Positions 5,876-50,282 of a DNA stretch of 64,000 nt are shown piece by piece (the first letter of the stretch is position 1; each line of letters begins with the position of its first letter). The notes below the pieces were generated by a model. It worked only from the letters and a program-made list of their open reading frames with translations, was not told the DNA's origin and ran no database searches. Position numbers and translations under genes: made by a program. The stretch comes from Amphiscolops sp. MND2022 (taxonomy: Eukaryota): positions 35,280,001-35,344,000 of the forward strand of contig OZ076409.1 of assembly GCA_964187785.1 (NCBI GenBank). The letters run 5' to 3'.

Positions 5876-6548
5876 CAAGTTGAGTTGAGTTGAGTTGTAT
5901 TGGCATACAGGCTATTGCCTCTGCACCAGCTCCTCTAGTTAAAGGGTCTTTCCGTTTCTGTTTAACATAGTCTGAATTGATTATTCTTCAAATGGTCATC
6001 CAGTTTCTTCTTGAAGTCACATAAATTGTTAGCGGAAACTACTGATGCTGGTAGATGATTTCAATCATTGGCTACACGCACTGAGAAGAATGTCTTTCTG
6101 AGTTTTAGCTTTGCATTCCTTGTCTTTAGTTGGATGTTATTCCCACGGTGAGTTCTATGAGAGCTCTTTCAGTCCGTTCGATGCTTTTTTGTCATAGAGG
6201 AAGTTCATGTTTGTATATCTCAATCAGAGCACCTCTCCTCCTTCTAAATTCCAGAGTGGGACGCTTCAGAGTCTCTAATCGTTCCTCATATGACAAGTTT
6301 CGAAGAGTTGGTATCAGTCGAGTTGTTCTGCGTTGAATGTTTTCAATTTGGGTTTTCTGTCTTTGGTATCTTGGAAACCAATTTTGTTTACAGTATTCTA
6401 GGTGCGGGCGGACTAATGATTTATACAGATTGACAACGATTTCCGTCAAGGTCGAGAAAGATTTCTTGGTGAGGCCAAGAAAGGTGTTAGCGTTTTTTGT
6501 TTTTGGCACTAAAGGTCTGCCGAAGTTCAGTTTTTCGTCTTTTTCCAC
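5876..6548 (-). mobile_element. 3' end of a CR1-type LINE with a (CAACT)n microsatellite tail
   Basis: YKSLVRPHLEYC...IENIQRRTTRLIP.LRNLSYEERL...TLEFRRRRG.LIEIYK, then FFSVRVAND...LPASVV...FKKKLD. (gagtt)n repeat at ~5878-5897. Confidence 0.9.
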
Positions 6549-6565
6549 TCCGAGATCCTTTTCCG

Positions 6566-7190
6566 GCTACAGGTCACTTGCTATACTGGGCATTTCCTAT
6601 AATATAGACAGGTCACTTCCTATAATGTCGACAGGTCATTTGCTATTATAATATAGATTAAAGCAAGTGACCTAGAAAATTATCGCAAGTTACCTGATAT
6701 GGTGACTATTCAAATCGTAGAATATTCAAATCGGCAATAAAACCAATGCAATTTAAAGCGTCGAAAGAAATCCATAGCAGCGAATATTTTCAGGTTAAAA
6801 TTTGTAGAGGTTAGCATATTTGTTGTATGGCTCGGTCGCTTCGCTTCCTGCGCCAAGTAGCAACATTGAGGCATGGCCTTGTGGCACGTCGCTTCGTTTC
6901 GTTTCGCACCTACTGTTAAGGCACTAGGGGTATGTGAACATATCTGACTACGTTATCGTAATTAGTTCGTGGCTTGTGCAGTATTCATTTTATTGAATTT
7001 GATTGGCTCATTGAATGACAGTTTGGTCACGTGACTATACGAGCAGGACCAGGTCATTTGCTATAATTTAATGAAACAATAGACGGTCACTTGCTATAAT
7101 CTTTTATAGCAAGTGACCGAAAAGGTATAGACAAAACCAGAAAGTCACTTGCTATAATATAGCTTTTTGTAGATTTTGACCGGCTCCCCC
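6566..7190. mobile_element. Non-autonomous DNA-transposon-like element with GGTCACTTGCTATA subterminal repeats
   Basis: About nine copies of the motif in both orientations, clustered at 6571-6696 and 7051-7156. No coding capacity seen. Confidence 0.6.
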
Positions 7191-7199
7191 TTTTCCGTG

Positions 7200-8259
7200 C
7201 TGGGTGTTCTACAATTAGCTGATGTCTTTGAGAACTTTGTGCAAACATCCACTGAAGAATACGGCATCAATATGTTATACTCATACTCAGGTGCTGGATA
7301 TACCTGGAAAGCTGGTTTAAGAATGACCAAAATCAAATAAGATTTTATAAAAGATAAAGATTTATTACTTTTTTTAAAAAACAATATACGTGGAGGAATT
7401 TCGAGTGTTATGGGTGATAGGCAAGTTGTATCGGATGTCAACAAACAAACCTTATGCATTGATGCAAATACTCTATATGGACGGTGTATGAGTCAATATA
7501 TTCGTACTGGCGAATTCGAAAAATTACTTTTAATTCCGAATATTTACACAGATACCGCGTGATTAAAATCTAGAGCAATTAGTTGAAGATTTATTACAAA
7601 TAGCAGATGATAATGAAAATGGATTCTTTATAGAATGTGATTTAGAATATCCACAAGATATCAAAGAAAAAAGTGAAAATGTCCTTATGTGTCCTTATCA
7701 AGTAGAAGCTAGTTGTGAGTTGTTCTCAGATTATATGAATTTTATTAAACAACCGAATTATAAACTAACCCAACAACTCGTGTGTGACTTAACAAACAAA
7801 CAAAAATATATGATGCACTACAGGATGTTCAAATTTCACATCAACATGGGTAAGAAAGTAACAAAGATGCATACAATCTACCGCTTCAAACAAAGTAAAT
7901 CTTTAGCAAGATACATTGATCATAACACCCAAAAACATACCAAAGCAGAAACAAACTTTGAAAAAGACTTGTACAAATTAATGAACAATGTTTCTTTGGT
8001 GAGACTGTGGAAAATCTAAGAGCTAGAACCAATCTAGATTTCATTGATCTTTCGCAAATACAGCAAATAAAAAAGAAGACAATCCGAGTTAGGTTTCAAA
8101 GGTTTTGCGGATCACTACTCCACGTTTAGCGTGTACAAGTTTGATAACGAACAAACCGTTTTTGATAAACCTGTAATATTGGGGTTCCGTGTGTTAGAAT
8201 TAAGTAAACTGTTACTGTATGAATTTAATTATAATAGTTTAGAACCGTATTGGCATGAC
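7200..8259 (+). pseudogene. pPolB: Protein-primed family B DNA polymerase, central part
   Basis: LADVFENF...NIRGGIS...IDANTLYG..MSQY (motif A), FFIECDLEY, KDLYKLMNN (motif B), FDKPVILGF.VLELSK.L.YEF.Y. Several frameshifts. Stops abruptly after ...PYWHD. Confidence 0.9.
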
Positions 8260-8789
8260 TGCGATCAAGTTTAATAATTACAGGAGAGACTACTTCTTTA
8301 GCATTTTTTTTCTTTTCGTTCATTTAATAATTTGGAAGTTTTCATTAGGAATTGAAGTTGCAATTATATGTAGTACTAAATTGTATTGTTAACAGTTGAC
8401 ATTTTTACTATTTTCTCAAGGGTTTTTCAACTACTTTAACATCTTTTCTACATACTATAAAGTATTTTTCAACTACTTTAACAGTCTTTTTACCACTAAG
8501 AAAGTAGTCGTTATACTTTATAGAGTATCTATAGAGTACAATATAAATAACTTCCAAAGAATAAATACTATATAAATAAAGAATTTTCAAAGAAAAATTT
8601 ATGAAAGTTGTGATGATGGTGAACAAGAAGTTTCTTGTGAAGAGTGTTTAAAAGTACTACCATCGACTGCTTCTCATATCTACACACACACGGGTAAGTT
8701 CGATAAAAAAATGTATATCATGTTTTATTGCTGATGTTGAGGGTAATTGTGGGAAGTTAGTTATTCGCACTAATTTGAATAAACACTTC

Positions 8790-9479
8790 ACTTGAAAATC
8801 TGTGTCCAGAAAATAAAACAAAAAGTAAATAATACAATTGATACAATTGATATTACAGTTGATACAATTAAAACAAATATTTTCATAATTGATACAGAAA
8901 CAAATTACAAATTAAATCGAACATTATTAGTTGGTCCAAAATTTTGTGATAAGACCCATTTGTTAGTAAACAAATTTCAATTATTTCGCTTGGATAATCC
9001 TGAACAACTAATAAAAATGAAAACTATATCTCCGGAACAGTACGGCAACGCTGGCTTTGCATTAGAACATAGAAGACGTTTCAGTGGAAGAAGATCTAGA
9101 AGATAGAACAATACAAGATTTTCAAAATTGTTGTGTTGTATTTGATGATATGTTGGATAGTAATCAAAACCCAATAGATCCATTTTTTTTACTAGAAGAA
9201 GACATAATGATTTATATGTTTATTCTTTATCACAGTAAAACTTTGATTTGCCTAAAAGAACAATTAGAAACAATTCGATATAAAAATTTTATTCCAACAA
9301 ACCTTGAAAAACATAGAACATATTCATACAGGCATAGCAGCTTTTAGTATGTCTTGGGATGAATTTAAAAGTCTTTGCGTAGAAGCATGGAAAGAAAAAT
9401 ATACTTAAATATTGATAAATAGGGTAGAAGATAAAAATGGTTAAAAAAATATAAGATTTGTAATGAATCTATGAATCTA
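8790..9479 (+). pseudogene. A32/FtsK-like DNA-packaging ATPase, copy 1
   Basis: Degenerate Walker A LLVGPKFCDKT, Walker B CCVVFDDML; frameshifted. Confidence 0.85.
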
Positions 9480-10215
9480 CAAATTTACATTATATCTACA
9501 CTGACCGTTTTGTTCTTAGTTTTGATTCAAACAACCAACAACTTTTTCCAACGAAACAAAATTGAATTTGATTTTGGTGAATTAGTGCTTTAAGTGATTT
9601 TAGTAAATCTCAGGAATTATACGATCCTATTACCAACAAAATTATAGGAAAAATGAAAGTTGAAACAAGTCCGGTATTAGTATTAGATAGCTTCACAGCC
9701 TTACGATCAAAGTCATATTTTTCTTCATACCAAAGGCACGAAGCGTATGATAACGCTATAGTACAAAAAGCAAAACAAAAAGGATTACAAAAAGCCCCCC
9801 AAATGTGAAGATTACAAGAATTTATTGTTTATGTCCGAAACGCCAAATGCAACAATGTATTCAATTCGTTCAAACTTACATCAATTATCAGTTGAAAAAC
9901 AAAACAAACTAGCTTTTAATCCTTTTGACGTTAAACGTATGTACTTAAATCGAATACAATGTTTAAAATAGAACAAACACACACAGCAAGGCGATTGTCC
10001 TTGTCTATTTTGTTTGAAGTTTATACTTTTATATCAGAACAAATTATTCGATGCCAGCTTTGTTGTAACTGAAAATTGTAAAACAAATGAAACAATACAG
10101 CAAAGCTGGCTTCATATACCGAAGGCGCTTCGCGTATGCTTAAATGATTGGTATTGGAAATAAAAATTAACCCATCAAGAGCTTTTAAAGCTGATAAGTG
10201 ATCGAGCACATCCTT
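9480..10215 (+). pseudogene. pPolB: pPolB C-terminal part, copy 1
   Basis: NLHYIYTDRFVLSFD (decayed YxDTDS motif C), IIGKMKVET, ALRSKSY, KAKQKG, FNPFDVKR. Confidence 0.85.
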
Positions 10216-10416
10216 TATAATTTTAAATCATTTAAAATAATATTTTTAATAAGGAATCTCTGATATCCTTAGATGATAAGTATATTTTATTACATTTATG
10301 TATATTTTTTAATATTCATATATATATAAATATCATATTGTTGTCATTAATAATTATATCAATATTATCATTTTAAATAAAATTATTATAAATTCATTCA
10401 TTATAAATTTTGTTTC

Positions 10417-11480
10417 TCATATTAAATCAAAATGCCTTTGTCCGTCACTACTGATAAGTATCAACTTGGGTTTTAGTACAAAGGCGTAAGCTATTAAATC
10501 TGCTACATTATTGGCAGCGCTAAATTTATATTCTAATCTGATAGGTTGACTCGCAAAATGATCTTTTTGTTTGGATAAGATAAATACATAGAAATTATAG
10601 TTTGTCCTGAGTTTATGCAAATCAAAAAATGGCCTCAATAGGTTAGTTTCATTTTTTAACCAAATGAGTTTTTCTATTTCTTGATATGCTTCACGGTAAT
10701 TGCATCTATCAGAGTCACCTTCACCTCCATCAATACGATATTTTTCTGATCCTATTTTACAAACAGCATTTGAAATAGATAAACGATCAAACATTGCATT
10801 ATCATGTGTTTGTGAATCACTTTTATCTCTAGCTTGAAATCCAACTATTACGAAAGATGGTGTTGATTCTCCACTTTTTCCCAGGTCAAAGGTCCAATTA
10901 TTGTTAGTGTTTACATCTTTTCTAAAAACATTCCGTTCCATGTAATACAATTCATTTGGATCTTTATTCTGTAATTCATCCATCTTAATTTGTTGGTTTT
11001 CTAAGCTAGGTGTAAAGTGTGGAATATTTTTGGAACCAACCAAAATTTTTGCTAACATTTTTTGCAGCATCACTTGTCTTTTGATAGCGACTGATTCCTC
11101 AAACACATACATCAATTCACTGACTTGTTGTTGGGAAGTTTATGCAATATACTCATTATAATATGGAGGTTGTCAACTTTTTCCAAAAAGTTCCCCGAAC
11201 TGGTTGTCAGCTTAGCTTCACTAAAAAAGCAACAGGCCCAAAATTTACTAGTGCTATTATCATTACTACTATCATTATCCACATGTCTTATATCGTCAGT
11301 TTCAAAATCTAATGATATTTAAAAGTTTTGTAAACAAATATATGCATCTTCTTTCGGCAAACTGATTGAAACATTTGAATTATTATTATTGATTGTACCG
11401 AAACTATCTGGAATTTATTTTATAAAATCAATTTTATGAATAGGTCTAACAAGAGCATACTTATTTTTCAAAGAAAATAT
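10417..11480 (-). pseudogene. Polinton/adintovirus major capsid protein (double jelly-roll), copy 1
   Basis: C-terminal pattern PSFVIVGFQ...DNAMFD...CKIGSEKY...YREAY...YNFYVF.LSKQ...IRLEYKF...AYAFV. N-terminal IHKIDFIK...ISLPKEDAY. In-frame stops and frameshifts. Confidence 0.75.
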
Positions 11481-11624
11481 TTCCAATTATAATAGAAAAA
11501 AGATTTGAAATCAGTTTTTAAAATTTATATTTATTTGCAAAGCCTAGACTTTCTTTCTAATATTATTTTTACAGAACAAACCTTTTTTTAAAAAATAAAC
11601 TTAGAAGTATTTTAGTTTAATTGT

Positions 11625-12110
11625 TTTTATTCACATCGTATCTTTGTTTTAGTTTGTTGTGTTCATTCAGATCTATTTTTTGTCTTCTAGACACTTTGTG
11701 TGTAGCTTTTGGAAGTTGTTTAAAGTTCCACCAGCATGTGTATATTTATTAAAATTGTGTTGTTCTTTTCTTTCCAGATACTCACCAATAAACTTACTGA
11801 AAATGCATACTCCAGCACGTATACCACTCGCGATGGGGACAACAACCTTTCCAACTCCGGTAACACTTAACAAGATACTTGTTGAAGAAACAGCCGATAC
11901 TAAATTTCCATCAGTAGATTGAAGTAAACAGTTTATAATTTTATAAGTCTTATATTTCTTTTTATACTTTTTAGCTTCATGATTATGAAAAAGTTTTATT
12001 ATATCTTTTATATTTTGAAATGAATTAAAAAAACTATTTATTTCATCCAGTCGTATATCTAAACCATCTGGATGCGCTTCGCTTAAACAAGAAAATAATT
12101 TTTCACTCAT
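11625..12110 (-). pseudogene. Conserved Polinton-type protein with a hydrophobic hairpin (KKYKK...SVTGVG..VVP...CLEDNKID), copy 1
   Basis: ORF 11673..12110. The motif layout resembles a small membrane-associated protein common in invertebrate Polintons; function unknown. Confidence 0.55.
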
Positions 12111-12895
12111 TTCTTTTATTTGATAACTTGGTTTTTAATTTACATTTATTTATATTTTTACAAGTTTAGTTTTCAAAAAGTATGAAAGTGAGCACAGTAT
12201 CAGTTGGTTTCATTCTATAATTAAGGTCAACAATATCATTGTACTGGTCTTTCTTCAAACTATTCAACACGGTTTATTAAGTTGAATAGTCTAAGACTCA
12301 TAAATAATACACACCATCTGATGTTTGTATTTCTGTTCCGTATTTCTCCAACAATTATTGGTTTGTTAAAGTTGGATACTCAATAAAAATTTGGAGTTTA
12401 TTTTCAAAGTCAAACAATCCTTTATTATATAGTAATTGAACAGTATCTTTGACTGCTTCACTTTTACATTTTTCCAATTCCAAAATAAGGTTTCTCTCGA
12501 AGTGATTACGTAAAATGGTTTGTTGTTCCTCTCCTAATTTGGCAGCATCCAAAATATATTCTTTCTTCTTTCTAATATTTTATTTTTTAATTATCTTGTT
12601 CTAAATACTTCAAATTCGTTTTTATATTTTCTACAATTTTATTGTATCTAAGAAATACTTCGCATTGACTACTACCTTGGTTTCACCGTCGACAAATATA
12701 ATTTCCTGTATAATTTCTAATTTATCAGACATAGTGCTTCGCATAGTGCTTCGAATTTCAATAACTTTTATGTTAAACAAGATAATTTTTAATTCCAATT
12801 CTTTTTCTAAATTCTCAATTTTATCTTTTTGCAAGCTCTCGGCTTATAACCAATTGTATGAATTGCCTTTATTTATCTAGGTTTAATAACTCAAA

Positions 12896-13800
12896 TTAGT
12901 GGAAACTATTCATACTTTTTAACACCTTCTGGTTAGATCCAAAGTTGAATACACTTCTTAGAAGTTCTTGCTCATAATATTTTCCTTGAATAACTTCTCC
13001 ATTTCCATATTCTAGAGTATAAGGTACTGGCTTCGTTTTGTTAATTTTGTGTGTTTTAAAAAGTTTCAATTTGTTGTATAACCTCAACTATACAATTTGC
13101 GTTTGTAAGGAACTCTTACAACATCCCCCACTTGAAACTTAGGTAAATCAGAATTATTGCAAGGTATTAGACTAGAAATTGTTTTGTCAATACTAGCTTC
13201 AAAAGGTGTGTTGTGCTTCATACGTGTTGTGGTGTGCACACGATCATCATAAGTTCCCAAAGCAGCGTCAAGATGATTCAACCAACAAGCTTTACCTTCA
13301 AAATACATTGGTTCTTCAAGAAGTTTTAATATTGTTCTATTGAAGCGTTCAACAAAAACAGCTTTCAAATCTGAATTAGTTGAACAAACCTGAATGTTTT
13401 CCTCTTAGGAATATTTAAAAAAGTTTTATTTTATAACTTTTTACCATCATCCGACCAAATTTCAAGTATCTTTCTTTTTTGCTTCTCCAATAGGACGTTT
13501 TAATGCAGTTGTTGTACTTTTTCCTGATTTATCTTTGAGAGGAATCGCCCATGCATTTTGTATGATTGTCAGTTATTGTAAAAACAAACTTTAAGTTTTG
13601 TTGTATTTTGCTAAGCTAGACTGGTCTATCAGATCAATACTCCAACACTCATCTTCATAATGGGGAATTATTTCATTGCGATCAAGTTTAATAATTACAG
13701 GAGAGACTACTTCTTTAGCATTTTTTTTCTTTTCGTTCATTTAATAATTTGGAAGTTTTCATTAGGAATTGAAGTTGCAATTATATGTAGTACTAAACTG
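12896..13800 (-). pseudogene. int: Retroviral-like (rve) c-integrase, copy 1
   Basis: WSIDLID, AWAIPLKDKSG, IWSDDGK, KAVFVERFNRTI, KFQVGDVVRV, IQGKYYEQELL; frameshifted. Confidence 0.93.
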
Positions 13801-14208
13801 TATTGTTAACAGTTGACATTTTTACTACTTTCTCAAGGGTTTTTCAACTACTTTAACATCTTTTCTACCTACTATAAAGTATTTTTCAACTACTTTAACA
13901 GTCTTTTTACCACTAAGAAAGTAGTCGTTATACTTTATAGAGTATCTATAGAGTACAATATAAATAACTTCCAAAGAATAAATACTATATAAATAAAGAA
14001 TTTTCAAAGATAAATTTATGAAAGTTGTGATGATGGTGAACAAGAAGTTTCTTGTGAAGAGTGTTTAAAAGTACTACCATCGACTGCTTCTCATACCTAC
14101 ACACACACGGGTGGGTTCGATAAAAAAATGTATATCATGTTATATTGCTGATGTTGATCGTAATTGTGGCAAGTTAGTTATTCGCACTAATAGTTGAATA
14201 AACACTTC

Positions 14209-14897
14209 ACTTGAAAATCTGTGTCCAGAAAATAAAACAAAAAGTAAATAATACAATTGATACAATTGATATTACAGTTGATACAATTAAAACAAATATT
14301 TTCATAATTGATACAGAAACAAATTACAAATTAAATCGAACATTATTAGTTGGTCCAACATTTTGTGATAAGACCCATTTGTTAGTAAACAAATTTCAAT
14401 TATTTCGCTTGGATAATCCTGAACAACTAATAAAAATGAAAACTATATCTCCGGAACAGTACGGCAACGCTGGCTTTGCATTAGAACATAGAAGACGTTT
14501 CAGTGAAGAAGATCTAGAAGATAGAACAATACAAGATTTTCAAAATTGTTGTGTTGTATTTGATGATATGTTGGATAGTAATCAAAACCCAATAGATCCA
14601 TTTTTTTTACTAGAAGAAGACATAATGATTTATATGTTTATTCTTTATCACAGTAAAACTTTGATTTGCCTAAAAGAACAATTAGAAACAATTCGATATA
14701 AAAATTTTATTCCAACAAACCTTGAAAAACATAGAACATATTCATACAGACATAGCAGCTTTTAGTATGTCTTGGGATGAATTTAAAAGTCTTTGCGTAG
14801 AAGCATGGAAAGAAAAATATACTTAAATATTGATAAATAGGGTAGAAGATAAAAATGATTAAAAAAATATAAGATTTGTAATGAATCTATGAATCTA
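14209..14897 (+). pseudogene. Packaging ATPase, copy 2
   Basis: ORF 14211..14765 with GPTFCDKT and VVFDDML. Confidence 0.85.
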
Positions 14898-15633
14898 CAA
14901 ATTTACATTATATCTACACTGACCGTTTTGTTCTTAGTTTTGATTCAAACAACCAACAACTTTTTCCAACGAAACAAAATTGAATTTGATTTTGGTGAAT
15001 TAGTGCTTTAAGTGATTTTAGTAAATCTCAGGAATTATACGATCCTATTACCAACAAAATTATAGGAAAAATGAAAGTTGAAACAAGTCCGGTATTAGTA
15101 TTAGATAGCTTCACAGCCTTACGATCAAAGTCATATTTTTCTTCATACCAAAGGCACGAAGCGTATGATAACGCTATAGTACAAAAAGCAAAACAAAAAG
15201 GATTACAAAAAGCCCCCCAAATGTGAAGATTACAAGAATTTATTGTTTATGTCCGAAACGCCAAATGCAACAATGTATTCAATTCGTTCAAACTTACATC
15301 AATTATCAGTTGAAAAACAAAACAAACTAGCTTTTAATCCTTTTGACGTTAAACGTATGTACTTAAATCGAATACAATGTTTAAAATAGAACAAACACAC
15401 ACAGCAAGGCGATTGTCCTTGTCTATTTTGTTTGAAGTTTATACTTTTATATCAGAACAAATTATTCGATGCCAGCTTTGTTGTAACTGAAAATTGTAAA
15501 ACAAATGAAACAATACAGCAAAGCTGGCTTCATATACCGAAGGCGCTTCGCGTATGCTTAAATGATTGGTATTGGAAATAAAAATTAACCCATCAAGAGC
15601 TTTTAAAGCTGATAAGTGATCGAGCACATCCTT
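14898..15633 (+). pseudogene. pPolB: pPolB C-terminal part, copy 2
   Basis: Near-identical to 9480-10215. Confidence 0.85.
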
Positions 15634-15834
15634 TATAATTTTAAATCATTTAAAATAATATTTTTAATAAGGAATCTCTGATATCCTTAGATGATAAGTA
15701 TATTTTATTACATTTATGTATATTTTTTAATATTCATATATATATAAATATCATATTGTTGTCATTAATAATTATATCAATATTATCATTTTAAATAAAA
15801 TTATTATAAATTCATTCATTATAAATTTTGTTTC

Positions 15835-16898
15835 TCATATTAAATCAAAATGCCTTTGTCCGTCACTACTGATAAGTATCAACTTGGGTTTTAGTACAAA
15901 GGCGTAAGCTATTAAATCTGCTACATTATTGGCAGCGCTAAATTTATATTCTAATCTGATAGGTTGACTCGCAAAATGATCTTTTTGTTTGGATAAGATA
16001 AATACATAGAAATTATAGTTTGTCCTGAGTTTATGCAAATCAAAAAATGGCCTCAATAGGTTAGTTTCATTTTTTAACCAAATGAGTTTTTCTATTTCTT
16101 GATATGCTTCACGGTAATTGCATCTATCAGAGTCACCTTCACCTCCATCAATACGATATTTTTCTGATCCTATTTTACAAACAGCATTTGAAATAGATAA
16201 ACGATCAAACATTGCATTATCATGTGTTTGTGAATCACTTTTATCTCTAGCTTGAAATCCAACTATTACGAAAGATGGTGTTGATTCTCCACTTTTTCCC
16301 AGGTCAAAGGTCCAATTATTGTTAGTGTTTACATCTTTTCTAAAAACATTCCGTTCCATGTAATACAATTCATTTGGATCTTTATTCTGTAATTCATCCA
16401 TCTTAATTTGTTGGTTTTCTAAGCTAGGTGTAAAGTGTGGAATATTTTTGGAACCAACCAAAATTTTTGCTAACATTTTTTGCAGCATCACTTGTCTTTT
16501 GATAGCGACTGATTCCTCAAACACATACATCAATTCACTGACTTGTTGTTGGGAAGTTTATGCAATATACTCATTATAATATGGAGGTTGTCAACTTTTT
16601 CCAAAAGGTTCCCCGAACTGGTTGTCAGCTTAGCTTCACTAAAAAAGCAACAGGCCCAAAATTTACTAGTGCTATTATCATTACTACTATCATTATCCAC
16701 ATGTCTTATATCGTCAGTTTCAAAATCTAATGATATTTAAAAGTTTTGTAAACAAATATATGCATCTTCTTTCGGCAAACTGATTGAAACATTTGAATTA
16801 TTATTATTGATTGTACCGAAACTATCTGGAATTTATTTTATAAAATCAATTTTATGAATAGGTCTAACAAGAGCATACTTATTTTTCAAAGAAAATAT
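15835..16898 (-). pseudogene. Major capsid protein, copy 2
   Basis: ORF 15835..16533 translates identically to 10417..11115. Confidence 0.75.
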
Positions 16899-17042
16899 TT
16901 CCAATTATAATAGAAAAAAGATTTGAAATCAGTTTTTAAAATTTATATTTATTTGCAAAGCCTAGACTTTCTTTCTAATATTATTTTTACAGAACAAACC
17001 TTTTTTTAAAAAATAAACTTAGAAGTATTTTAGTTTAATTGT

Positions 17043-17528
17043 TTTTATTCACATCGTATCTTTGTTTTAGTTTGTTGTGTTCATTCAGATCTATTTTTTG
17101 TCTTCTAGACACTTTGTGTGTAGCTTTTGGAAGTTGTTTAAAGTTCCACCAGCATGTGTATATTTATTAAAATTGTGTTGTTCTTTTCTTTCCAGATACT
17201 CACCAATAAACTTACTGAAAATGCATACTCCAGCACGTATACCACTCGCGATGGGGACAACAACCTTTCCAACTCCGGTAACACTTAACAAGATACTTGT
17301 TGAAGAAACAGCCGATACTAAATTTCCATCAGTAGATTGAAGTAAACAGTTTATAATTTTATAAGTCTTATATTTCTTTTTATACTTTTTAGCTTCATGA
17401 TTATGAAAAAGTTTTATTATATCTTTTATATTTTGAAATGAATTAAAAAAACTATTTATTTCATCCAGTCGTATATCTAAACCATCTGGATGCGCTTCGC
17501 TTAAACAAGAAAATAATTTTTCACTCAT
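17043..17528 (-). pseudogene. Conserved hydrophobic-hairpin Polinton protein, copy 2
   Basis: ORF 17091..17528 translates identically to 11673..12110. Confidence 0.55.
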
Positions 17529-18313
17529 TTCTTTTATTTGATAACTTGGTTTTTAATTTACATTTATTTATATTTTTACAAGTTTAGTTTTCAAAAAGTA
17601 TGAAAGTGAGCACAGTATCAGTTGGTTTCATTCTATAATTAAGGTCAACAATATCATTGTACTGGTCTTTCTTCAAACTATTCAACACGGTTTATTAAGT
17701 TGAATAGTCTAAGACTCATAAATAATACACACCATCTGATGTTTGTATTTCTGTTCCGTATTTCTCCAACAATTATTGGTTTGTTAAAGTTGGATACTCA
17801 ATAAAAATTTGGAGTTTATTTTCAAAGTCAAACAATCCTTTATTATATAGTAATTGAACAGTATCTTTGACTGCTTCACTTTTACATTTTTCCAATTCCA
17901 AAATAAGGTTTCTCTCGAAGTGATTACGTAAAATGGTTTGTTGTTCTTCTCCTAATTTGGCAGCATCCAAAATATATTCTTTCTTCTTTCTAATATTTTA
18001 TTTTTTAATTATCTTGTTCTAAATACTTCAAATTCGTTTTTATATTTTCTACAATTTTATTGTATCTAAGAAATACTTCGCATTGACTACTACCTTGGTT
18101 TCACCGTCGACAAATATAATTTCCTGTATAATTTCTAATTTATCAGACATAGTGCTTCGCATAGTGCTTCGAATTTCAATAACTTTTATGTTAAACAAGA
18201 TAATTTTTAATTCCAATTCTTTTTCTAAATTCTCAATTTTATCTTTTTGCAAGCTCTCGGCTTATAACCAATTGTATGAATTGCCTTTATTTATCTAGGT
18301 TTAATAACTCAAA

Positions 18314-19218
18314 TTAGTGGAAACTATTCATACTTTTTAACACCTTCTGGTTAGATCCAAAGTTGAATACACTTCTTAGAAGTTCTTGCTCATAATATTT
18401 TCCTTGAATAACTTCTCCATTTCCATATTCTAGAGTATAAGGTACTGGCTTCGTTTTGTTAATTTTGTGTGTTTTAAAAAGTTTCAATTTGTTGTATAAC
18501 CTCAACTATACAATTTGCGTTTGTAAGGAACTCTTACAACATCCCCCACTTGAAACTTAGGTAAATCAGAATTATTGCAAGGTATTAGACTAGAAATTGT
18601 TTTGTCAATACTAGCTTCAAAAGGTGTGTTGTGCTTCATACGTGTTGTGGTGTGCACACGATCATCATAAGTTCCCAAAGCAGCGTCAAGATGATTCAAC
18701 CAACAAGCTTTACCTTCAAAATACATTGGTTCTTCAAGAAGTTTTAATATTGTTCTATTGAAGCGTTCAACAAAAACAGCTTTCAAATCTGAATTAGTTG
18801 AACAAACCTGAATGTTTTCCTCTTAGGAATATTTAAAAAAGTTTTATTTTATAACTTTTTACCATCATCCGACCAAATTTCAAGTATCTTTCTTTTTTGC
18901 TTCTCCAATAGGACGTTTTAATGCAGTTGTTGTACTTTTTCCTGATTTATCTTTGAGAGGAATCGCCCATGCATTTTGTATGATTGTCAGTTATTGTAAA
19001 AACAAACTTTAAGTTTTGTTGTATTTTGCTAAGCTAGACTGGTCTATCAGATCAATACTCCAACACTCATCTTCATAATGGGGAATTATTTCATTGCGAT
19101 CAAGTTTAATAATTACAGGAGAGACTACTTCTTTAGAATTTTCTTTTTTTCGTTCATTTAATAATTTGGAAGTTTTCATTAGGAATTGAAGTTGCAATTA
19201 TATGTAGTACTAAACTGT
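18314..19218 (-). pseudogene. int: c-integrase, copy 2
   Basis: ORFs 18314..18505, 18502..18786 and 19009..19197 carry the same motifs as copy 1. Confidence 0.93.
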
Positions 19219-19623
19219 ATTGTTAACAGTTGACATTTTTACTACTTTCTCAAGGGTTTTTCAACTACTTTAACATCTTTTCTACCTACTATAAAGTATT
19301 TTTCAACTACTTTAACAGTCTTTTTACCACTAAGAAAGTAGTCGTTATACTTTATAGAGTATCTATAGAGTACAATATAAATAACTTCCAAAGAATAAAT
19401 ACTATATAAATAAAGAATTTTCAAAGATAAATTTATGAAAGTTGTGATGATGGTGAACAAGAAGTTTCTTGTGAAGAGTGTTTAAAAGTACTACCATCGA
19501 CTGCTTCTCATACCTACACACACACGGGTGGGTTCGATAAAAAAATGTATATCATGTTATATTGCTGATGTTGATCGTAATTGTGGCAAGTTAGTTATTC
19601 GCACTAATTTGAATAAACACTTC

Positions 19624-20312
19624 ACTTGAAAATCTGTGTCCAGAAAATAAAACAAAAAGTAAATAATACAATTGATACAATTGATATTACAGTTGATACA
19701 ATTAAAACAAATATTTTCATAATTGATACAGAAACAAATTACAAATTAAATCGAACATTATTAGTTGGTCCAACATTTTGTGATAAGACCCATTTGTTAG
19801 TAAACAAATTTCAATTATTTCGCTTGGATAATCCTGAACAACTAATAAAAATAAAAACTATACCTCCGGAACAGTACGGCAACGCTGGCTTTGCATTAGA
19901 ACATAGAAGACGTTTCAGTGGAAGAAGATCTAGAAGATAGAACAATACAAGATTTTCAAAATTGTTGTGTTGTATTTGATGATATGTTGGATAGTAATCA
20001 AAACCCAATAGATCCATTTTTTCACTAGAGGAAGACATAATGATTTAGATGTTTATTCTTTATCACAGTAACACTTTGATTTGCCTAAAAGAACAATTAG
20101 AAACAATTCGATATAAAAATTTTATTCCAACAAACCTTGAAAAACATAGAACATATTCATACAGACATAGCAGCTTTTAGTATGTCTTGGGATGAATTTA
20201 AAAGTCTTTGCGTAGAAGCATGGAAAGAAAAATATACTTAAATATTGATAAATAGGGTAGAAGATAAAAATGGTTAAAAAAATATAAGATTTGTAATGAA
20301 TCTATGAATCTA
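19624..20312 (+). pseudogene. Packaging ATPase, copy 3
   Basis: GPTFCDKT and VVFDDML; retains the codons for TRGRH. Confidence 0.85.
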
Positions 20313-21048
20313 CACATTTACATTATATCTACACTGACCGTTTTGTTCTTAGTTTTGATTCAAACAACCAACAACTTTTTCCAACGAAACAAAATTGAAT
20401 TTGATTTTGGTGAATTAGTGCTTTAAGTGATTTTAGTAAATCTCAGGAATTATATGATCCTATTATCAACAAAATTATAGGAAAAATGAAAGTTGAAACG
20501 AGTCCGGTATTAGTATTAGATAGCTTCACAGCCTTACGATTAAAGTCATATTTTTCTTCATACCAAAGGCACGAAGCGTATGATAACGCTATAGTACAAA
20601 AAGCAAAACAAAAAGGATTACAAAAAGCCCCCCAAATGTGAAGATTACAAGAATTTATTGTTTATGTCCGAAACGCCAAATGCAACAATGTATTCAATTC
20701 GTTCAAACTTACATCAATTATCAGTTGAAAAACAAAACAAACTAGCTTTGAATCCTTTTGACGATAAACGTATGTACTTAAATCGAATACAATGTTTACA
20801 ATAGAAAAAACACATACAGCAAGGCGATTGTCCTTGTCTATTTTGATTGAAGTTTATACTTTTATATCAGAACGAATTATTCGATGCCAGCTTTGTTGTA
20901 ACTGGAAGTTGTAAAACAAATGAAAAAATACAGCAAAGCTGGCTTCATATACCGAAGGCGCTTCGCGTATGCTTAAATGATTGGTATTGGAAATAAGAAT
21001 TAACCCATCAAGAGCTTTTAAAGCTGATAAGTGACCGAGCACATCCTT
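20313..21048 (+). pseudogene. pPolB: pPolB C-terminal part, copy 3
   Basis: Diverged copy that keeps the canonical LNPFDDKR. Confidence 0.85.
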
Positions 21049-21249
21049 TATAATTTTAAATCATTTAAAATAATATTTTTAATAAGGAATCTCTGATATC
21101 CTTAGATGATAAGTATATTTTATTAAATTTATGTATATTTCTTAATAATCATTTATATATAAATATAATATTGTTGTCATTTAAAATTATATCAATATTA
21201 TCATTTTAAATAAACTTATTATAAATTCGTTCATTATAAATTTTGTTTC

Positions 21250-22307
21250 TCATATTAAATCAAAATGCCTTTGTCCGTCACTACTGATAAGTATCAACTT
21301 GGGTTTTAGTACAAAGGCATAAGCTATTAAAGCTGCTACATTATTGGCAGCGCTAAATTTATATTCTAATCTGATAGGTTAACTCGCAAAATGATCTTTT
21401 TGTTTGGATAAGTTAAATACATAGAAATTATAATTTGTCCTGAGTTTATGCAAATAAAAAAATGGCCTCAATAGGTTAGTTTCACCTTTCAACCAAATGA
21501 GTTTTTCTATTTCTTGATATGCTTCACGGTAATTGCATCTATCATAGTCACCTTCACTTCCATCAATACGATATTTTACCTGATCCTATTTTACAAACAG
21601 CATTTGAAATAGATAAACGATCATACATTGCATTATCATGTGTTTGTGAATCACTTTTATCTCTTGCTTGAAATCCAACTACTACGAAAGTTGGTGTTGA
21701 TTCTCCACTTTTTCCCAAGTCAAAGGTCCAATTATTGTTAGTGTTTACATCTTTTCTAAAAACATTCCGTTCCATGTAATACAATTCATTTGGATCTTTA
21801 TTCTGTAATTCATCCATCCTAATTTGTTGGTTTTCGAAGCTAGGTGTAAAGTGTGGAACATACCAACCAAATATTTTGCTAACATTTTTTGCAGCATCAC
21901 TTGTCTTTTGATAGCGACTGATTCCTCAAACCCATACATCAATTCACTGACTTGTTGTTGGGAAGTTTATGCAATATACTCATTATAATATGGAGGTTGT
22001 CAACTTTTTCCAAAAGGTTCCCCGAACTGGTTGTCAGCTTAGCTTCACTAAAAAAGCAACAGGCCCAAAATTTACTAGTGCTATTATCATTACTACTATC
22101 ATTATCCACATGTCTTATATCGTCAGTTTCAAAATCTCATGATATTTAAAAGTTTTGTAAACAAATATATGCATCTTCTTTCGGCAAACTGATTGAAACA
22201 TTTGAATTATTATTATTGATTGTAGCGAAACTATCTGGAATTTATTTTATAAAATCAATTTTATGAATAGGTCTAACAAGAGCATACTCATTTTTCATAG
22301 AAAAAAT
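21250..22307 (-). pseudogene. Major capsid protein, copy 3
   Basis: ORFs 21563..21817 and 21745..21942 are homologous to copies 1 and 2. Confidence 0.75.
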
Positions 22308-22443
22308 TTCCAATTATAATAGAAAAAAGATTTGAAATCAGTTTTTAAAATTTATATTTATTTGCAAAGCTTAGTCTTTCTTTCTAATATTTTTTTTACA
22401 GAACAAACCTATTTTTTAAAAATAAACTTAGAAGTATTTTAGT

Positions 22444-22802
22444 TTAATTGTCTTTATTCACATCGTATCTTTGTTTTAGTTTGTTGTGTTCATTCAGATC
22501 TATTTTATTGTCTTCTAGACACTTTGTGTGTAGCTTTTGGAAGTTGTTTAAAGTTCCACCAGCATGTGTATATTTATTAAAATTGTGTTGTTCTTTTCTT
22601 TCCAGATACTCACCAATAAACTTACTGAAAATGCATACTCCAGCACCTATACCACTCGCGATGGGGACAACAACCTGTCCAACTCCGGTAACACTTAACA
22701 AGATACTTGTTGAAGAAACAGCCGATACTAAAACTCCATCAGTAGATTGAAGTAAACCGTTTATAATTTTATAAGTCTTATATTTCTTTTTATACTTTTT
22801 AG
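22444..22802 (-). pseudogene. Hydrophobic-hairpin Polinton protein, copy 3 (5'-truncated by deletion)
   Basis: ORF 22444..22701; deletion junction at ~22803. Confidence 0.55.
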
Positions 22803-22957
22803 CATTCGAATTTCAATAAATTTTATGTTAAACAAGATGGTTTTTAAATCCAATTCTCTTTCTAAATTCTCATTTTTATCTTTTTGATAAAGATAAGCTC
22901 TCGGCTTATAACCAATTGTATGAATTGCCATTATTTATCGAGGTTAAATAACTCAAA

Positions 22958-23818
22958 TTAGTGGAAACTATTCATACTTTTTAACACCTTCTGGTTAGAT
23001 CCAAAGTTGAATACACTTCTTAGAAGTTCTTGCTCATAATATTTTCCTTGAATAACTTCTCTATTTCCATATTCTAGAGTATAAGGTACTGGCTTCGTTT
23101 TGTTAATTTTATGTGTTTTAAAAAGTTTCAATTTGTTGTATAACCTTTACTATACAATTTGCGTTTGTAGGGAACTCTTACAACATCCCCCACTTGAAAC
23201 TTAGGTAAATCAGAATTATTGCAAGGTATTAGACTAGAAATTGTTTTGTCAATACTAGCTTCAAAAGGTGTGTTGTGCTTCATACGTGTTGTGGTGTGCA
23301 CACGATCATCATAAGTTCCCAAAGCAGCGTCCTTCAATAAGTTTTAATATTGTTCTTTTGAAGCGTTCAACAAAAACAGCTTTCAAATCTGAATTAATTG
23401 AACAAACCTGAATGTTTTCCTCTTAGGAAAATTTAAAAAAGTTTTATTTTATAACTTTTTACCATCATCCGACCAAATTTCAAGTATCTTTCTTTTTTGC
23501 TTCTCCAATAGGACGTTTTAATGCAGTTGTTGTACTTTTTCCTGATTTATCTTTGAGAGGAATCGCCCATGCATTTTGTATGATTGTCAGTTATTGTAAA
23601 AACAAACTTTAAGTTTTGTTGTATTTTGCTAAGCTAGACTGGTCTATCAGATCAATACTCCAACACTCATCTTCATAATGGGGAATTATTTCATTGCGAT
23701 CAAGTTTAATAATTACAGGAGAGACTACTTCTTTAGAATTTTCTTTTTTTCGTTCATTTAATAATTTGGAAGTTTTCATTAGGAATTGAAGTTGCAATTA
23801 TATGTAGTACTAAATTGT
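22958..23818 (-). pseudogene. int: c-integrase, copy 3
   Basis: ORFs 23128..23337 (KFQVGDVVRV...SKGYTTN) and 23609..23797; about 44 bp deleted near 23330. Confidence 0.92.
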
Positions 23819-24208
23819 ATTGTTAACAGTTGACATTTTTACTATTTTTTCAAGGGTTTTTCAACTACTCTAACATCTTTTCTACCTACTATAAAGTATT
23901 TTTCAACTACTTTAACAGTGTTTTTACCATTAAGAAAGTAGTTGTTATACTTTATAGAGTATCTATAGAGTACAATATAAATAACATCCAAAGAATAAAT
24001 ACTATATAAATAAAGAATTTTCAAAGATAAATTTATGAAAGTTGTGATGATGGTGAACAAGAAGTTTCTTGTGAAGAGTGTTTAAAAGTACTACCATCGA
24101 CTGCTTCTCATACCTACACACACACGGGTAAGTTCGATAAAAAAATGTATATCATGTTATTTTGCTGATGTTGAGGGTAATTGTGGGAAGTTAGTTATTC
24201 GCACTAAT

Positions 24209-24945
24209 TTGAATAAACACTTGAAAATCTGTGTCCAGAAAATAAAACAAAAAGTAAATGATACAATTGATACAAATGATAATACAGTTGATACAATTAA
24301 AACAAATATTTTCATAATTGATACAGAAACAAATTACAAATTAAATCGAACATTATTAGTTGGTCCAACATTTTGTGATAAGACCCATTTGTTAGTGAAC
24401 AAATTTCAATTATTTCGCTTGGATAATCCTGAACAACAAATAAAAATAAAAACTATGTCTCCGGAACAGTACGGCAACGCTGGCTTTGCATTAGAACATA
24501 GAAGAAGTTCCAGTGGAAGAAGATCTAGACGATAGAACAATACAAGATTTTCAAAATTGCTGTGTTGTATTTGATGATATGTTGGATAGTAATCAAAACC
24601 CAATAGATCCATTTTTTACTAGAGGAAGACACAATGATTTAGATGTTTATTCTTTATCACAGTCACACTTTGATTTGCCTAAAAGAACAATTAGAAACAA
24701 TTCGATATAAAAACTTTATTCCAACAAACCTTGAAAAATATAGAACATATTCATACAGACATATCAGCTTTCAGTATGTCTTGGGATGAATTTAAAAGTC
24801 TTTGCGTAGAAGCATGGAAAAAAATATAATTAAAAATTGATAAATAGGGTAGAAGATAAAAATGGTTAAAAAAATATAAGATTTGTAATGAATCTATGAA
24901 TCTAATCCGGAGTATGAAATCAATAATCCACAAACGTATTTTTTT
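24209..24945 (+). pseudogene. Packaging ATPase, copy 4 (native position, continues into its own 3' end)
   Basis: GPTFCDKT, CCVVFDDML, FTRGRHNDLDVYSLSQSHFDLPKRTIRNNS (A32-type arginine-finger region). Confidence 0.9.
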
Positions 24946-25354: not shown

Positions 25355-26149
25355 TTATAGTTTATCAGCAATTGCTATGATTTTTTCACTTAGCGTAGGA
25401 TTATCATTTCTTCCTACTTTTTCCAAGTAAAGCAATCTTAATTGATCTACAAGCTCATCTGGATCAGTTGGAAGAAAAATATACTGATTGAAACCACTGC
25501 CTAATTGGGATTCTCGATATTGATATTGAATAATCAAATCTTTATTGAAATGATATCTCTTTGATTTTTTATCTCCTGGAATGTTGATAATATACTTCAT
25601 GTAATTTAAAAAAGTATAAATTACATCCACGTTTTGTGGTTTTTTATCCAATTGTGTATTAGTTATAAAATTTTGAAGATCCTGATCATTTAAATTATAT
25701 GTGTTACCAATCTTGAATGTCATCGTTGAATCTTTGATTTGTACTAGTTGCGGAATAGTGTGGTTAATTGTGAATAAACTTGAATTACTTTCTTCAGGTT
25801 CTAAACTGAATTGACTTTTGTTTTTGTCATTAAGCAAATTAGAAACTGTCTTAACTATACTAGAATCAACGGTATTTGAATCAACTAAGTTTGGAAGAAC
25901 TTGATTTTTACAGTTTGTAAATTTATCATATTCTTGTATTCCTTCTTTAACCGATTTTTGTAAACTTTTATTATGAATGGTACTAGAGTCTTGAAGAGCT
26001 TGTGTTGTTGTTTGAGAAAAATCACGAAGGGTTTGTAGTTGCTTTTCAGATAATTGTTTCTGGTTTTCAGTAGCTTCAGCCTGCTTTGCAGTATCGGGTT
26101 CAAAACGTTTTCTTTCAATCTTTCTTAGCGGAAAAAGATCATGTTTCAT
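25355..26149 (-). CDS. Polinton/adintovirus-type conserved protein: coiled-coil N-terminus, C-terminal GSG...LPxDPxELxxxLxLL motif
   Basis: 264 aa ORF ending QLGSGFNQYIFLPTDPDELVDQLRLLYLEKVGRNDNPTLSEKIIAIADKL, a motif I recognise from invertebrate Polinton ORFs; function not established here. Confidence 0.6.
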   Translation of the reverse strand: MKHDLFPLRKIERKRFEPDTAKQAEATENQKQLSEKQLQTLRDFSQTTTQALQDSSTIHNKSLQKSVKEGIQEYDKFTNCKNQVLPNLVDSNTVDSSIVKTVSNLLNDKNKSQFSLEPEESNSSLFTINHTIPQLVQIKDSTMTFKIGNTYNLNDQDLQNFITNTQLDKKPQNVDVIYTFLNYMKYIINIPGDKKSKRYHFNKDLIIQYQYRESQLGSGFNQYIFLPTDPDELVDQLRLLYLEKVGRNDNPTLSEKIIAIADKL

Positions 26150-26639
26150 ACAATTAGTTTAATTTTTCTAAATCATCTCGATTATGAATTGAGTACATTA
26201 ACTAATTATGATACTTTTGAACTTAAAGCTCAATAATGAAATTTACCCAAATATAAACTTTTTCTTGATGACCAATTTTCAGAATATCAGGAGCATTCGC
26301 AGCAATAAGGTATGCAATTTTACTTGCTGCTGCAGTACCAATATTTGCCTCAATCTTTAGTGCTCTACACGGATTGTGTAACAAAAAAATCACCCAATCC
26401 TTCTGCTTGTTTAGTTTCATCTGATACTATAAGGGGTTTATTTCTTTTAAAAATGGAACAAGTACCTTTTAATAGTGTAACTGGTTAGCCAGTAATTTAT
26501 TTTCTTATTTTGAGTAAAACGTCCACGAATATTTTGGCAGCGGATTATTGTTTTCCATCAACACAATATGAAAACTTCTTAAATTTATTGAAGCTCATAT
26601 TTTGAGAAAAAAAAACAATTAATTAATTTATATCTTAAT

Positions 26640-27660
26640 AATTTGAATTGTAAAGGTTTTGTCTCGTTGGTGAAATATACTGGATTATGACTGCTCTCCT
26701 CAAGGAAAAATTGGATCTTGTATAACCTTGTTTTGTTCATCTTTTTGTACAAATTAATATTGGGTTCTTTTAAAATGATATATCCCGGAAGTGCGCTTAA
26801 ATGTTAAAACTAAAGAAAAAGTGTTCTTGTTCGCCGTTGACAATTGAGCCATCTACACAATCACAATTCAGATGATTTTTGTCTTTCCTTGTTATCATAA
26901 CTGGTTTTTCTGATTTATGAGTTCTTTCTGAGTAGTCGGTCTTTGTAAATCCTAAAAGAGTGTTAAGTTCAGAATTAAAATGTATGTTATTAGAAGTTGT
27001 TAAAACTGTTTTCATTGATTTTGTATCTGCTTGTATGTTGAGTTCCAAATCAGAATCAAAATGTTTTGTATTCGATTGATGATATTGTTTATATAATCTA
27101 TTTCATATACTCCTGGTGTTAACTCAATTTCAAAGAACTAATTTTGAATTCCAAATTCAGTAACACTTTTTTTAGCTTCATGCGAAGCCAGCGTTGCTGT
27201 ATCCTTGTTAATTTGATCAATTATTTTCTTTAAATAGTCAAAAAAACTTTCTAGTAAGTTTCTTGATTTTAAAATAACTATTGGATAAAAGTTTACAAGT
27301 TTCTTCTATTTATTAACGGAGGTTTTAGATAAATACTCACCATTCATTATTAATTGAGTGTCAATGTTAAATGATTTGAGTTGTTCGTCTTTTAGTCTTT
27401 TAGAAGAACCTCAAGTTTGTTATTCTTTTCAGTAATGTTATATACAGTGTTGTATACTTCAAAACTTGTTGCTCCCATCATCCATTGTTCTGGCAGCTCC
27501 AAGGGAACATCGAATGAAAAAGATTCTTTTTGTTTATTCATTTCAAATTCTAAAACTCCTGAGGTTTGGATGAGGTGTTTTCAACAATATCTAAATTAGA
27601 TTTTGCAATACTCAGCAAAAGAGATTCTTGTTTATCATAAGTTAGAGAGTTTGATAGATC
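26640..27660 (-). pseudogene. Minor capsid (penton-like, single jelly-roll) protein
   Basis: SFSFDVPLELPEQWMMGATSFEVYNTVYNITEKNN at the N-terminus; LNTLLGF...HLNCDCVDGSIVNG...FFSF...PGYII.KEP at the C-terminus; frameshifted. Confidence 0.75.
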
Positions 27661-27934: not shown

Positions 27935-28357
27935 TTTGGTAGTATAAAATTTTTGGTGCATATTTGAAGCCTATTATATTTGGGAGATATAACACATAAA
28001 CACAATACGCTGTACAATAACTACCATTTTTCTGACTTTGATATTCTGATGAAAACCTATATAATTTGTTTTGTTATGTTTACTGGTGGTGGACAGCCAT
28101 AAGAATCGAAACGATACTCGTTATTAAACATAATCCAATGTGTTCCTACTGAGGGTAAAAACTTAAATATTCCTGCCGTTATTGTAAAAGTATCATCTCT
28201 CAAATACACTTCACAAGGAATAGTTATTTCATTAAGGATTTCTTTTTTTTACATTAGAAGTTCCTTCATTTTTTATTCCATATTTTTAGACAAATTCTTT
28301 GAATGATAAATACAGCTTTGCTGGCTTCGCAAACCGAAGGCGCTTCGCGTATTCCAT
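27935..28357 (-). pseudogene. Adenain-like cysteine (maturation) protease
   Basis: Manual translation gives VGTHWI (~28130-28150), RFDSYGCPPP (~28084-28113) and YQSQKNGSYCTAYCVY (~27997-28045), giving the His-Asp-Gln-Cys catalytic layout. Not in the ORF track because of stops and frameshifts. Confidence 0.88.
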
Positions 28358-32715: not shown

Positions 32716-32915
32716 TTTCAAATCATTTAAAATATAATTTTTAATGAGGAAACTATTATATCCATATATGATATGTGCAATATTTTGATTTTAAGTATAT
32801 TTTATTTTAATCATTTTCATATAAACATTATATCTTTTTCATTTAGATATAAATATAATAAAATATCATTTTATGTACAAAATTTGATAAAATTAATTAT
32901 TATGAATTTATTTTG

Positions 32916-50278: not shown

Positions 50279-50282
50279 AAAT

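Follow-up and report, generated by a model that had tools for sequence, protein, structure and literature searches.

How did a degraded Polinton come to carry a tandem array that begins inside its own polymerase gene? In the 64,000-nucleotide stretch analysed here (the window), the first-pass annotation had described an element amplified internally as A-B-A-B-A-B'-A. Self-BLAST and k-mer diagonals of the window, from which the boundaries in Table 1 were taken, reproduced this layout, and the repeats are 94-99.95% identical over kilobases, much more than chance would give. The four A copies all begin at one and the same base. Upstream of A1 lies sequence of the polymerase gene pPolB, and upstream of A2-A4 the end of B; downstream, A1-A3 are followed by the start of B and A4 by unique sequence. 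Divergence among the copies falls into tiers of 0.05% (B1/B2), 1.7-2.6% (A1/A3 1.7%, B1/B3 2.55%) and about 3% (2.7-3.2% between the other A copies and A4). Codon-position tests on B1/B3 and A1/A4, which have low power, gave no significant signal.

Table 1. Features of the Polinton relic and its internal array, in window coordinates
Feature	Position	Strand	Remarks
pPolB, middle part	7200-8259	+	about residues 675-1025 of a 1250-aa relative; 2 stops, 3 frameshifts; left edge of the relic, adjoins host-like DNA
A1	8260-9479		1220 bp; ectopic copy within pPolB: integrase 5' tip (minus), intergenic DNA, 3'-truncated ATPase (plus)
B1	9480-13676		4197 bp; pPolB 3' end, major capsid, small ORFs, integrase body
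pPolB, 3' end	9485-10217	+	starts just before motif C; 5 lesions common to B1-B3
Major capsid protein fragment	10417-11139	-	double jelly roll-like; PF21738, E 8.9e-6, 25.6 bits, curated cut-off 27
rve integrase	12911-13734	-	broken; read across the B1/A2 boundary
A2	13677-14897		apparent recombinant: first ~0.7 kb A3-like except A positions 43-53, then A1-like
A3-to-A1 switch interval in A2	14360-14437		A positions 682-759; window coordinates via alignment offsets
B2	14898-19094		2 substitutions against B1 in 4197 bp; youngest unit or assembly duplicate
A3	19095-20312		first 99 aligned bases as in A4, sister to A1 thereafter
B3 (B')	20313-23694		3382 bp; 2.55% from B1; 773 bp deleted after 22803, 44 bp after 23331
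A4	23695-24904		native copy; integrase continues past the 5' edge, ATPase past the 3' edge (to ~24936)
Open frame, 267 codons	25355-26158	-	part of the element; no convincing family
Broken gene	26806-27556	-	similar to a 261-aa ORF of related element L003
Broken protease-like gene	27987-28248	-	matches an L002 ORF (E 1.9e-5), itself weakly Peptidase_C5 (E 0.056)
Palindrome	28282-30154		1.9 kb; two ~0.9-kb arms, 15.3% substitutions, ~75-bp spacer
pPolB, N-terminal two thirds	30249-32589	+	residues 8-833; second or permuted copy
pPolB, C-terminal tip	32587-33197		after ~1.2-kb deletion; downstream DNA matching 10081-10528, short tandem copy; right edge of the relic

The relic and its genes

Several genes by which Polinton/Maverick elements are recognized are present: an A32-like packaging ATPase, an rve integrase and, on a fragment, a double jelly-roll major capsid protein. 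All four integrase relatives scanned matched PF00665 above the cut-off, and relatives align to the window. For the ATPase, PF04665 was matched by one of three close relatives scanned, and the ATPase of L003 matches both PF04665 and the window. The assignment of pPolB as a protein-primed family B polymerase is indirect. Direct searches with pPolB gave no Pfam PolB match and no hit among PDB sequences; full-length relatives of 1250-1293 aa map along the window, and PF03175 is found in 24-35% of the members of its ESM Atlas neighbours. Judged by its position, the broken gene similar to the L003 ORF probably encodes the minor capsid protein. Direct searches with the protease fragment found nothing, and a homolog search yielded none out of eight candidates. 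An ABC-transporter frame flanks the relic.

No inverted repeat was found joining the outer ends of the relic. Nor is there a 6-bp target-site duplication: each outer end is cut off within the element, and the two share only 5-nt T-rich chance words. Such an absence is expected for a relic; it bars the term "intact", not Polinton descent. Among viral contigs, the search by protein for DNA of intact close relatives gave four pattern matches, none of them confirmed, and the 22-nt palindrome motif gave none. Metagenome contigs contributed 24 loci, 29-57% identical, whose resemblance at the DNA level is confined to short parts of pPolB; these relatives are too distant for the ends of the element to be defined from them. 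An Rfam search returned no matches.

The same four ATPase lesions occur in each of A1-A4, and the same five pPolB lesions in each of B1-B3, in both cases with one relative as reference. These shared frameshifts and stops show that the Polinton had been inactivated before A or B was copied. The idea that the insertion inactivated a live pPolB was rejected on account of the earlier lesions.

The A copy within pPolB

With A1 skipped, pPolB is nearly contiguous, as had been proposed. In three of five full-length relatives the left tblastn match stops at 8259 and the next one starts at 9485, four residues on; in the other two the matches overrun the edges of A1. The first-pass annotation had noted that its reading would fail if relatives carried a substantial pPolB segment between WHD and LHY. 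Among 120 relatives examined for the LHY-region motif, 78 had it and 42 did not, and the distance from the aromatic residue to the L of LHY was five residues in 69 of the 78, nine residues in six, and unparsed in three. This common spacing equals 15 nt, compared with 11 nt in the window, which leaves about 4 nt unaccounted for.

The source of A1 can be traced by reading genes through the edges of each copy. ATPase matches extended at least 30 nt beyond the 3' edge of A in 75 of 120 relatives at A4, as against 6, 0 and 5 of 120 at A1, A2 and A3, respectively. Integrase matches crossed the 5' edge in 0, 20, 19 and 17 of 150 relatives at A1, A2, A3 and A4. Read-through of both genes thus identifies A4 as the native context of A. 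The earlier description of A as integrase 5' end plus ATPase is right in that both are present, but the integrase accounts for only about 60-80 nt, the remainder being intergenic DNA and an ATPase truncated by its last 11-14 codons; both ends of A lie within genes. A1 differs from A4 by 3.1%, whereas the other family copy in the window is at a distance of 11.7%, so the donor was this element.

At the edges of A neither inverted ends nor a target duplication beyond 1 duplicated nt was found, and microhomology between the A1 junctions and the native flanks of A is zero at both junctions. Taking into account that pPolB is nearly contiguous across A1 and about 4 nt short of its relatives, the best reading of A1 is that of a templated insertion made where pPolB had broken. 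The shared lesions, together with the missing target duplication and inverted ends, point to host repair rather than the integrase of the element as the maker of A1; "self-insertion" in the sense of an activity of the element is therefore not upheld.

Growth of the array

We consider it probable that the array arose in a dead Polinton through DNA repair and recombination by the host. After decay of the element, which is visible in its lesions, a break in pPolB would have been filled with 1.2 kb copied from a site of that element about 4.2 kb distant, either by a template switch out and back or through capture during end joining, at a net cost of about 4 nt. The product, pPolB-A-B-A, would date from the time now represented by copies about 3% apart. 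An unequal exchange between these A copies, close to where A begins, would then have duplicated B (1.7-2.6%), and a second exchange, within A positions 682-759, where its footprint is preserved, would have added one more A+B unit (about 0.1%).

The proposal that an ectopic A in pPolB created direct repeats around B, and that unequal recombination between A copies then expanded the array, finds its support in the mosaic structure of A2. At A positions 101-720 there are no substitutions between A2 and A3 over 620 sites, 12 of which distinguish A1 from A3, whereas at positions 721-1220 A2 has 2 substitutions in 499 sites relative to A1, in a stretch where A1 and A3 differ at 7 sites. The 23 informative sites fall into four runs (P = 2e-4 by shuffling; P = 1e-4 for the longest run), a pattern that marks A2 as an apparently clean A3/A1 recombinant at the site of exchange. 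A3 and A4 differ at 0 of 99 sites at the start, after which A3 groups with A1 (weakly, on 3 sites), as would be expected had the first crossover taken place close to where A begins. The model does not match every detail. At A positions 43-53 the states in A2 are of the A1 type, although a single crossover should have left the A3 type there, and an extra conversion tract is needed to explain this patch. Equal A1/A3 and B1/B3 divergence is expected, as against the 1.7% and 2.55% observed (Fisher p = 0.11).

The patch would find another explanation if the older steps were real and the newest unit false, the true order being pPolB-A-B-A-B'-A with one A+B unit duplicated by the assembler. B1 and B2 differ at only 2 of 4197 sites, an assembler jump from A3 back to A1 yields the same A2 mosaic, and polishing with mis-mapped reads could have left the A1-type states. 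The B1/B2 differences are transitions and not homopolymer indels, however, and A2 has a private 2-bp insertion, 1-bp deletion and substitution; we regard a false newest unit as unlikely.

Branch counts bear on the order of events and slightly favour (likelihood ratio 2.0) a course in which tandem duplication of B+A, forming the A|B junction, came first and was followed by expansion and then by loss of the first B, forming the pPolB|A junction. With this order B1/B3 divergence should lie near that of the A copies from A4, with A1/A3 lower, as is the case. It also demands that the left end of the deletion fell within about 4 nt of the earlier duplication breakpoint, a coincidence of roughly 1 in 500 over some 5 kb by a rough estimate, unless the break point is recurrent. 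It is this coincidence, not divergence, that places insertion first and makes the duplication-first course decidedly unlikely.

Rolling-circle copying, which the first-pass annotation had offered as an alternative to unequal recombination, is most improbable as a single event in which a B+A circle gave rise to a concatemer that was re-inserted. The three A|B junctions at one position are those of a concatemer, but identical junctions are also expected from unequal exchange, and units of the same age are predicted where at least two clearly different ages are seen (B1/B2 against B1/B3) and A2 is apparently recombinant. The divergence hierarchy largely refutes it, later B1/B2 conversion over 4.6 kb being needed to rescue it; growth of the array is stepwise.

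It is hardly credible that the integrase or polymerase of the element inserted A while active, or that A is a small mobile unit: A includes the 5' tip of the integrase and lies within the element, and a large family with intact relatives (1088 ATPase matches; an 81-member pPolB cluster) makes supply in trans possible, but the shared lesions are older than the copying and A, with both ends in genes and no target duplication or inverted ends, was rejected as a mobile unit.

By its geometry the array could release a 5.4-kb circle, which would be inert, with broken genes and no element ends. The array is a real structure but routine decay of junk DNA, and a function is unlikely.

The downstream palindrome and known systems

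Overlooked in the first-pass annotation, the N-terminus of pPolB lies downstream, beyond the 1.9-kb palindrome, whose 0.9-kb inverted pair is internal, between the protease and the pPolB start. This palindrome resembles two joined Polinton ends and is probably a fusion of one copy's right end with the left end of the following copy; (AG)3 or (AGT)2 motifs were not found at its centre. Because of this arrangement the locus appears to be an older head-to-tail dimer or permuted copy. Derivation of the array from two deletions in an older dimer was rejected: A1 and A4 would be 12-15% apart, not the observed 3%.

The downstream pPolB overlaps the upstream one at 7202-7678 with 11.7% substitutions and no lesions in common, and 20 of 45 differences fall on the third codon position (p = 0.08, or 0.11 and 0.20 against a further two reference proteins; a comparison of low power). 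The two pPolB overlaps, without common lesions and near-neutral (third-position share 0.42-0.44), behave as if the copies had been identical on arrival. On this basis the 7.2-33.2 kb locus might be the fossil of an end-joined Polinton replication form, circular or concatemeric, with its ends fused at 29.2 kb, captured by the chromosome without integrase and circularly permuted, pPolB being terminally redundant over about 2 kb. We hold this to be quite unlikely; two near-identical family members inserted at one site, both outer ends then being lost, explain the same data. If the end-joined reading were true, the locus would testify, from a genome, to end-joined intermediates of Polintons in animals. 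The junction at 28.3-30.2 kb would gain importance if it recurred across the family, as it bears on circular or concatemeric intermediates.

Most Polinton/Maverick copies are broken by stops and frameshifts, as described in PMC8097293. Degraded elements of this kind (PMC8097293, PMC10748475) have the same genes as the relic (pPolB, rve integrase, A32-like ATPase, double jelly-roll capsid, protease-like remnants), whereas the relic differs from the descriptions given there in its internal 5.4-kb array, a gene order permuted around an internal palindrome, and the lack of outer ends and of a 6-bp target duplication. The pPolB may belong to the "Beta" adintovirus-type PolB class as outlined in PMC8502044; its relatives have no PF03175 match but adjoin PF03175 clusters.

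A1 is like class 2 templated sequence insertions (PMC5110952) and MMBIR-type templated insertions (PMC8421209), as these are characterized there, in its copied patch, its micro-deletion and the absence of a target duplication or poly(A) tail. It is larger (1.2 kb; experimental inserts of 73-414 bp are quoted in PMC5110952), and its donor is not distant but within a few kb, inside the same element. Because A extends over two divergent genes, DNA suits it better than RNA as the template.

Templated insertion and unequal exchange are both known already, and the element was already dead, so the array tells little about Polinton biology. It is of interest as a datable series (about 3%, 2% and 0.1%) in which one repair patch supplies LTR-like repeats and unequal exchange adds units. 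McGurk and Barbash (bioRxiv 10.1101/158386) describe tandem arrays derived from transposons and growing by unequal exchange, and they also report internal-to-internal tandems as well as dimers of DNA transposons that are arranged head to tail and lack terminal sequence where they meet; the term "polinton" is absent from the main text of that report. As in the shared-LTR tandems presented there, direct repeats flank an internal segment and one repeat is shared between units, but here the direct repeat comes from a repair insertion and is not intrinsic, which makes the locus a worked example of a tandem array starting inside an element without intrinsic direct repeats.

Structure of the array and identity of the element

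Self-comparison of the window revealed a 5417-bp period starting at 8260, with a shorter last unit, and showed all segments of the tandem array, in which copies of A (about 1.2 kb) alternate with copies of B (about 4.2 kb). The outline in the first-pass annotation was thus mostly right. The excess over one B plus one A amounts to 11,238 bases.

Segments of the array, numbered left to right (window positions)
Segment	Position	Remark
A1	8260-9479	
B1	9480-13676	
A2	13677-14897	
B2	14898-19094	
A3	19095-20312	
B3	20313-23694	without 773 bp and 44 bp
A4	23695-24904	

G+C content is about 29% in the array region and about 40% in the flanks, which carry LINE-like, FLYWCH-RING and ABC-transporter frames; such frames indicate a eukaryotic host, probably an animal. 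The FLYWCH-RING frame (324 codons, 2452-3426, minus strand) adjoins LINE-like endonuclease/RT remnants (782-2305 and 6192-6566), and a 311-codon frame at 55401-56336 (plus strand) has an ABC-2 (ABCG-type) membrane domain. Host-like DNA also holds a tandem duplication of about 1.0 kb with 90% identity (50251-51268 / 51296-52329).

Database matches numbered 280 for the protein-primed polymerase pPolB (identity up to 73%), 1088 for the A32-like ATPase (up to 91%) and 197 for the integrase; the element belongs to a large family with close relatives. The rve domain was matched by all four integrase relatives scanned and Pox_A32 by one of three ATPase relatives, and the capsid fragment matched the double jelly-roll model with a score just below the model cut-off. 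None of six pPolB relatives scanned matched a Pfam PolB model; the polymerase label is indirect and comes from PF03175 in Atlas neighbours. The predicted protease and minor capsid genes are weakly supported. Around residue 500, four of the six pPolB relatives (P0010, P0029, P0061, P0071) have a domain resembling endonuclease VII. In the otherwise heavily broken element a 267-codon frame (25355-26158, minus strand) is still open; it has a weak ApoO match only.

Origin and growth of the array

ATPase matches overran the right edge of A by at least 30 nt in 75 of 120 relatives for A4, and in 6, 0 and 5 for A1, A2 and A3, respectively. The left edge was spanned by integrase matches in 0, 20, 19 and 17 of 150 relatives for A1 to A4. 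By these counts A4 is native on both sides, A2 and A3 on the left side only and A1 on neither side; judged by such read-through, A4 is the native copy, as had been proposed. Both edges of A fall inside genes, the integrase part within A being the first 20-25 codons only.

At A1 the pPolB match ends at 8259 and restarts at 9485, four residues later (three of five full-length relatives). Of 120 relatives examined, 78 bear the motif, and in 69 of these the spacing at the break corresponds to 15 nt; in the window it is 11 nt with A1 skipped. As only about 4 nt of pPolB is unaccounted for, no substantial segment is missing, and the near-contiguity first noticed by eye holds. The A1 site has no target duplication beyond 1 nt, the A1 junctions show no microhomology with the native flanks of A, and A has no inverted ends.

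Frameshift-aware alignment with one intact relative per gene identified four ATPase lesions that all A copies have and five pPolB lesions that all B copies have, which shows that insertion of A1 did not inactivate a working polymerase. The donor of A1 was this decayed copy, since A1 and A4 differ by 3.1%, against 11.7% for the other family copy in the window. The "self-insertion" of the first-pass annotation is therefore correct as to a copy of A within pPolB, but not as element activity, since the shared lesions predate copying. The array arose through host repair and recombination, in a Polinton that was already dead.

Substitution distances are 0.05% for B1/B2, 2.55% for B1/B3, 1.7% for A1/A3 and 2.7-3.2% between A4 and the other A copies. 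If A was copied into pPolB before B was duplicated, A1/A3 and B1/B3 should be equal, and their difference (p = 0.11) counts against this order. Tandem duplication of B+A followed by deletion of the leading B is favoured by branch counts by a factor of 2.0, but requires that two breakpoints fell independently within about 4 nt of each other (a chance of roughly 1 in 500 by our own estimate). For this reason we prefer insertion of A first.

At 23 sites distinguishing A1 from A3, A2 has, in order along A, three A1-type, twelve A3-type, seven A1-type and one A3-type; four or fewer runs occurred in 2 of 10,000 shuffles. The main switch from A3 to A1 lies at A positions 682-759. Pairing of A3 with A1 and a crossover in this interval would duplicate B, with the A2 mosaic as the expected footprint, although the first three A1-type sites require an extra conversion tract and count against a single crossover. 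The newest A+B unit may also be an assembly duplicate, because an A3-to-A1 jump during assembly would yield an identical mosaic. The first 99 bases of A3 are identical to those of A4 and the remainder groups with A1 (three sites only), a pattern that fits a previous crossover close to where A begins. Of the two routes originally suggested, unequal exchange agrees with the mosaic, while a single rolling-circle event, which predicts one unit age, is rejected by the unequal B distances, and growth was stepwise.

As the first-pass annotation says, loop-out between adjacent A copies would free a putative 5.4-kb circle. With neither the element ends nor most of pPolB, and with only broken pieces of the ATPase, integrase and polymerase genes, it should be inert.

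Palindrome and second pPolB piece

The pPolB reading from 7200 sets in only at about residue 675. Residues 8-833 are found at 30249-32589, and a deletion of about 1.2 kb separates them from the C-terminal tip. This second or permuted Polinton piece (30249-33197) thus holds the N-terminus missing from the left piece, overlaps it by about 2 kb and has, besides the deletion, a tandem copy of about 170 bp at its right edge. No lesion is common to the two overlaps (3 and 5 are private), and third codon positions hold 20 of 45 differences (p = 0.08). The overlaps were therefore intact when they arrived, and probably near-identical.

Between the protease-like gene and the pPolB start lies a 1.9-kb palindrome (28282-30154; arms 15.3% apart, spacer about 75 bp). 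All 15 matches of a 12-nt motif in the window fall in 7200-33200, six in the palindrome and nine elsewhere (three independent sites), which ties the palindrome to the element. In the simplest reading it is probably the junction of a right end with a left end, within a head-to-tail dimer or permuted copy that has lost its outer parts, and we infer that its arms are terminal repeats. It may instead be an unrelated foldback insertion; no canonical end motifs were found at its centre.

Short GC-rich motifs occur at 9050, 10105, 25285, 25303, 27181, 31546 and 32457 and in the palindrome arms, with hardly any in the flanks (15/15 and 11/12 matches inside 7200-33200). In-frame peptides of 4-5 residues, maybe the same motifs, are present in some intact relatives (12 and 7 of the database proteins compared), and the pPolB spacing is 4 residues longer in 6 of 78 relatives, which may match such inserts. 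This is suggestive of small mobile inserts that coding sequence can tolerate.

Relation to known systems

Neither an internal array nor an end-to-end junction in a Polinton appeared in titles and abstract openings of the top matches in a largely non-subscription literature, and the array at this locus may be unreported as a particular case. The mechanisms behind it are already known. Passages of McGurk and Barbash (bioRxiv 10.1101/158386) describe shared-repeat tandems, internal-to-internal tandems and head-to-tail DNA-transposon dimers, and growth of such tandems by unequal exchange. Degraded Polintons (PMC10748475), adintovirus-type PolB (PMC8502044) and MMBIR-type templated insertions (PMC8421209) are treated in sections of other comparison papers. 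The gene set of the element is that of Polintons as outlined in parts of PMC8097293, and in junction features (no target duplication beyond 1 nt, no microhomology with the native flanks, no inverted ends) A1 matches the class 2 templated insertions of the corresponding sections of PMC5110952.
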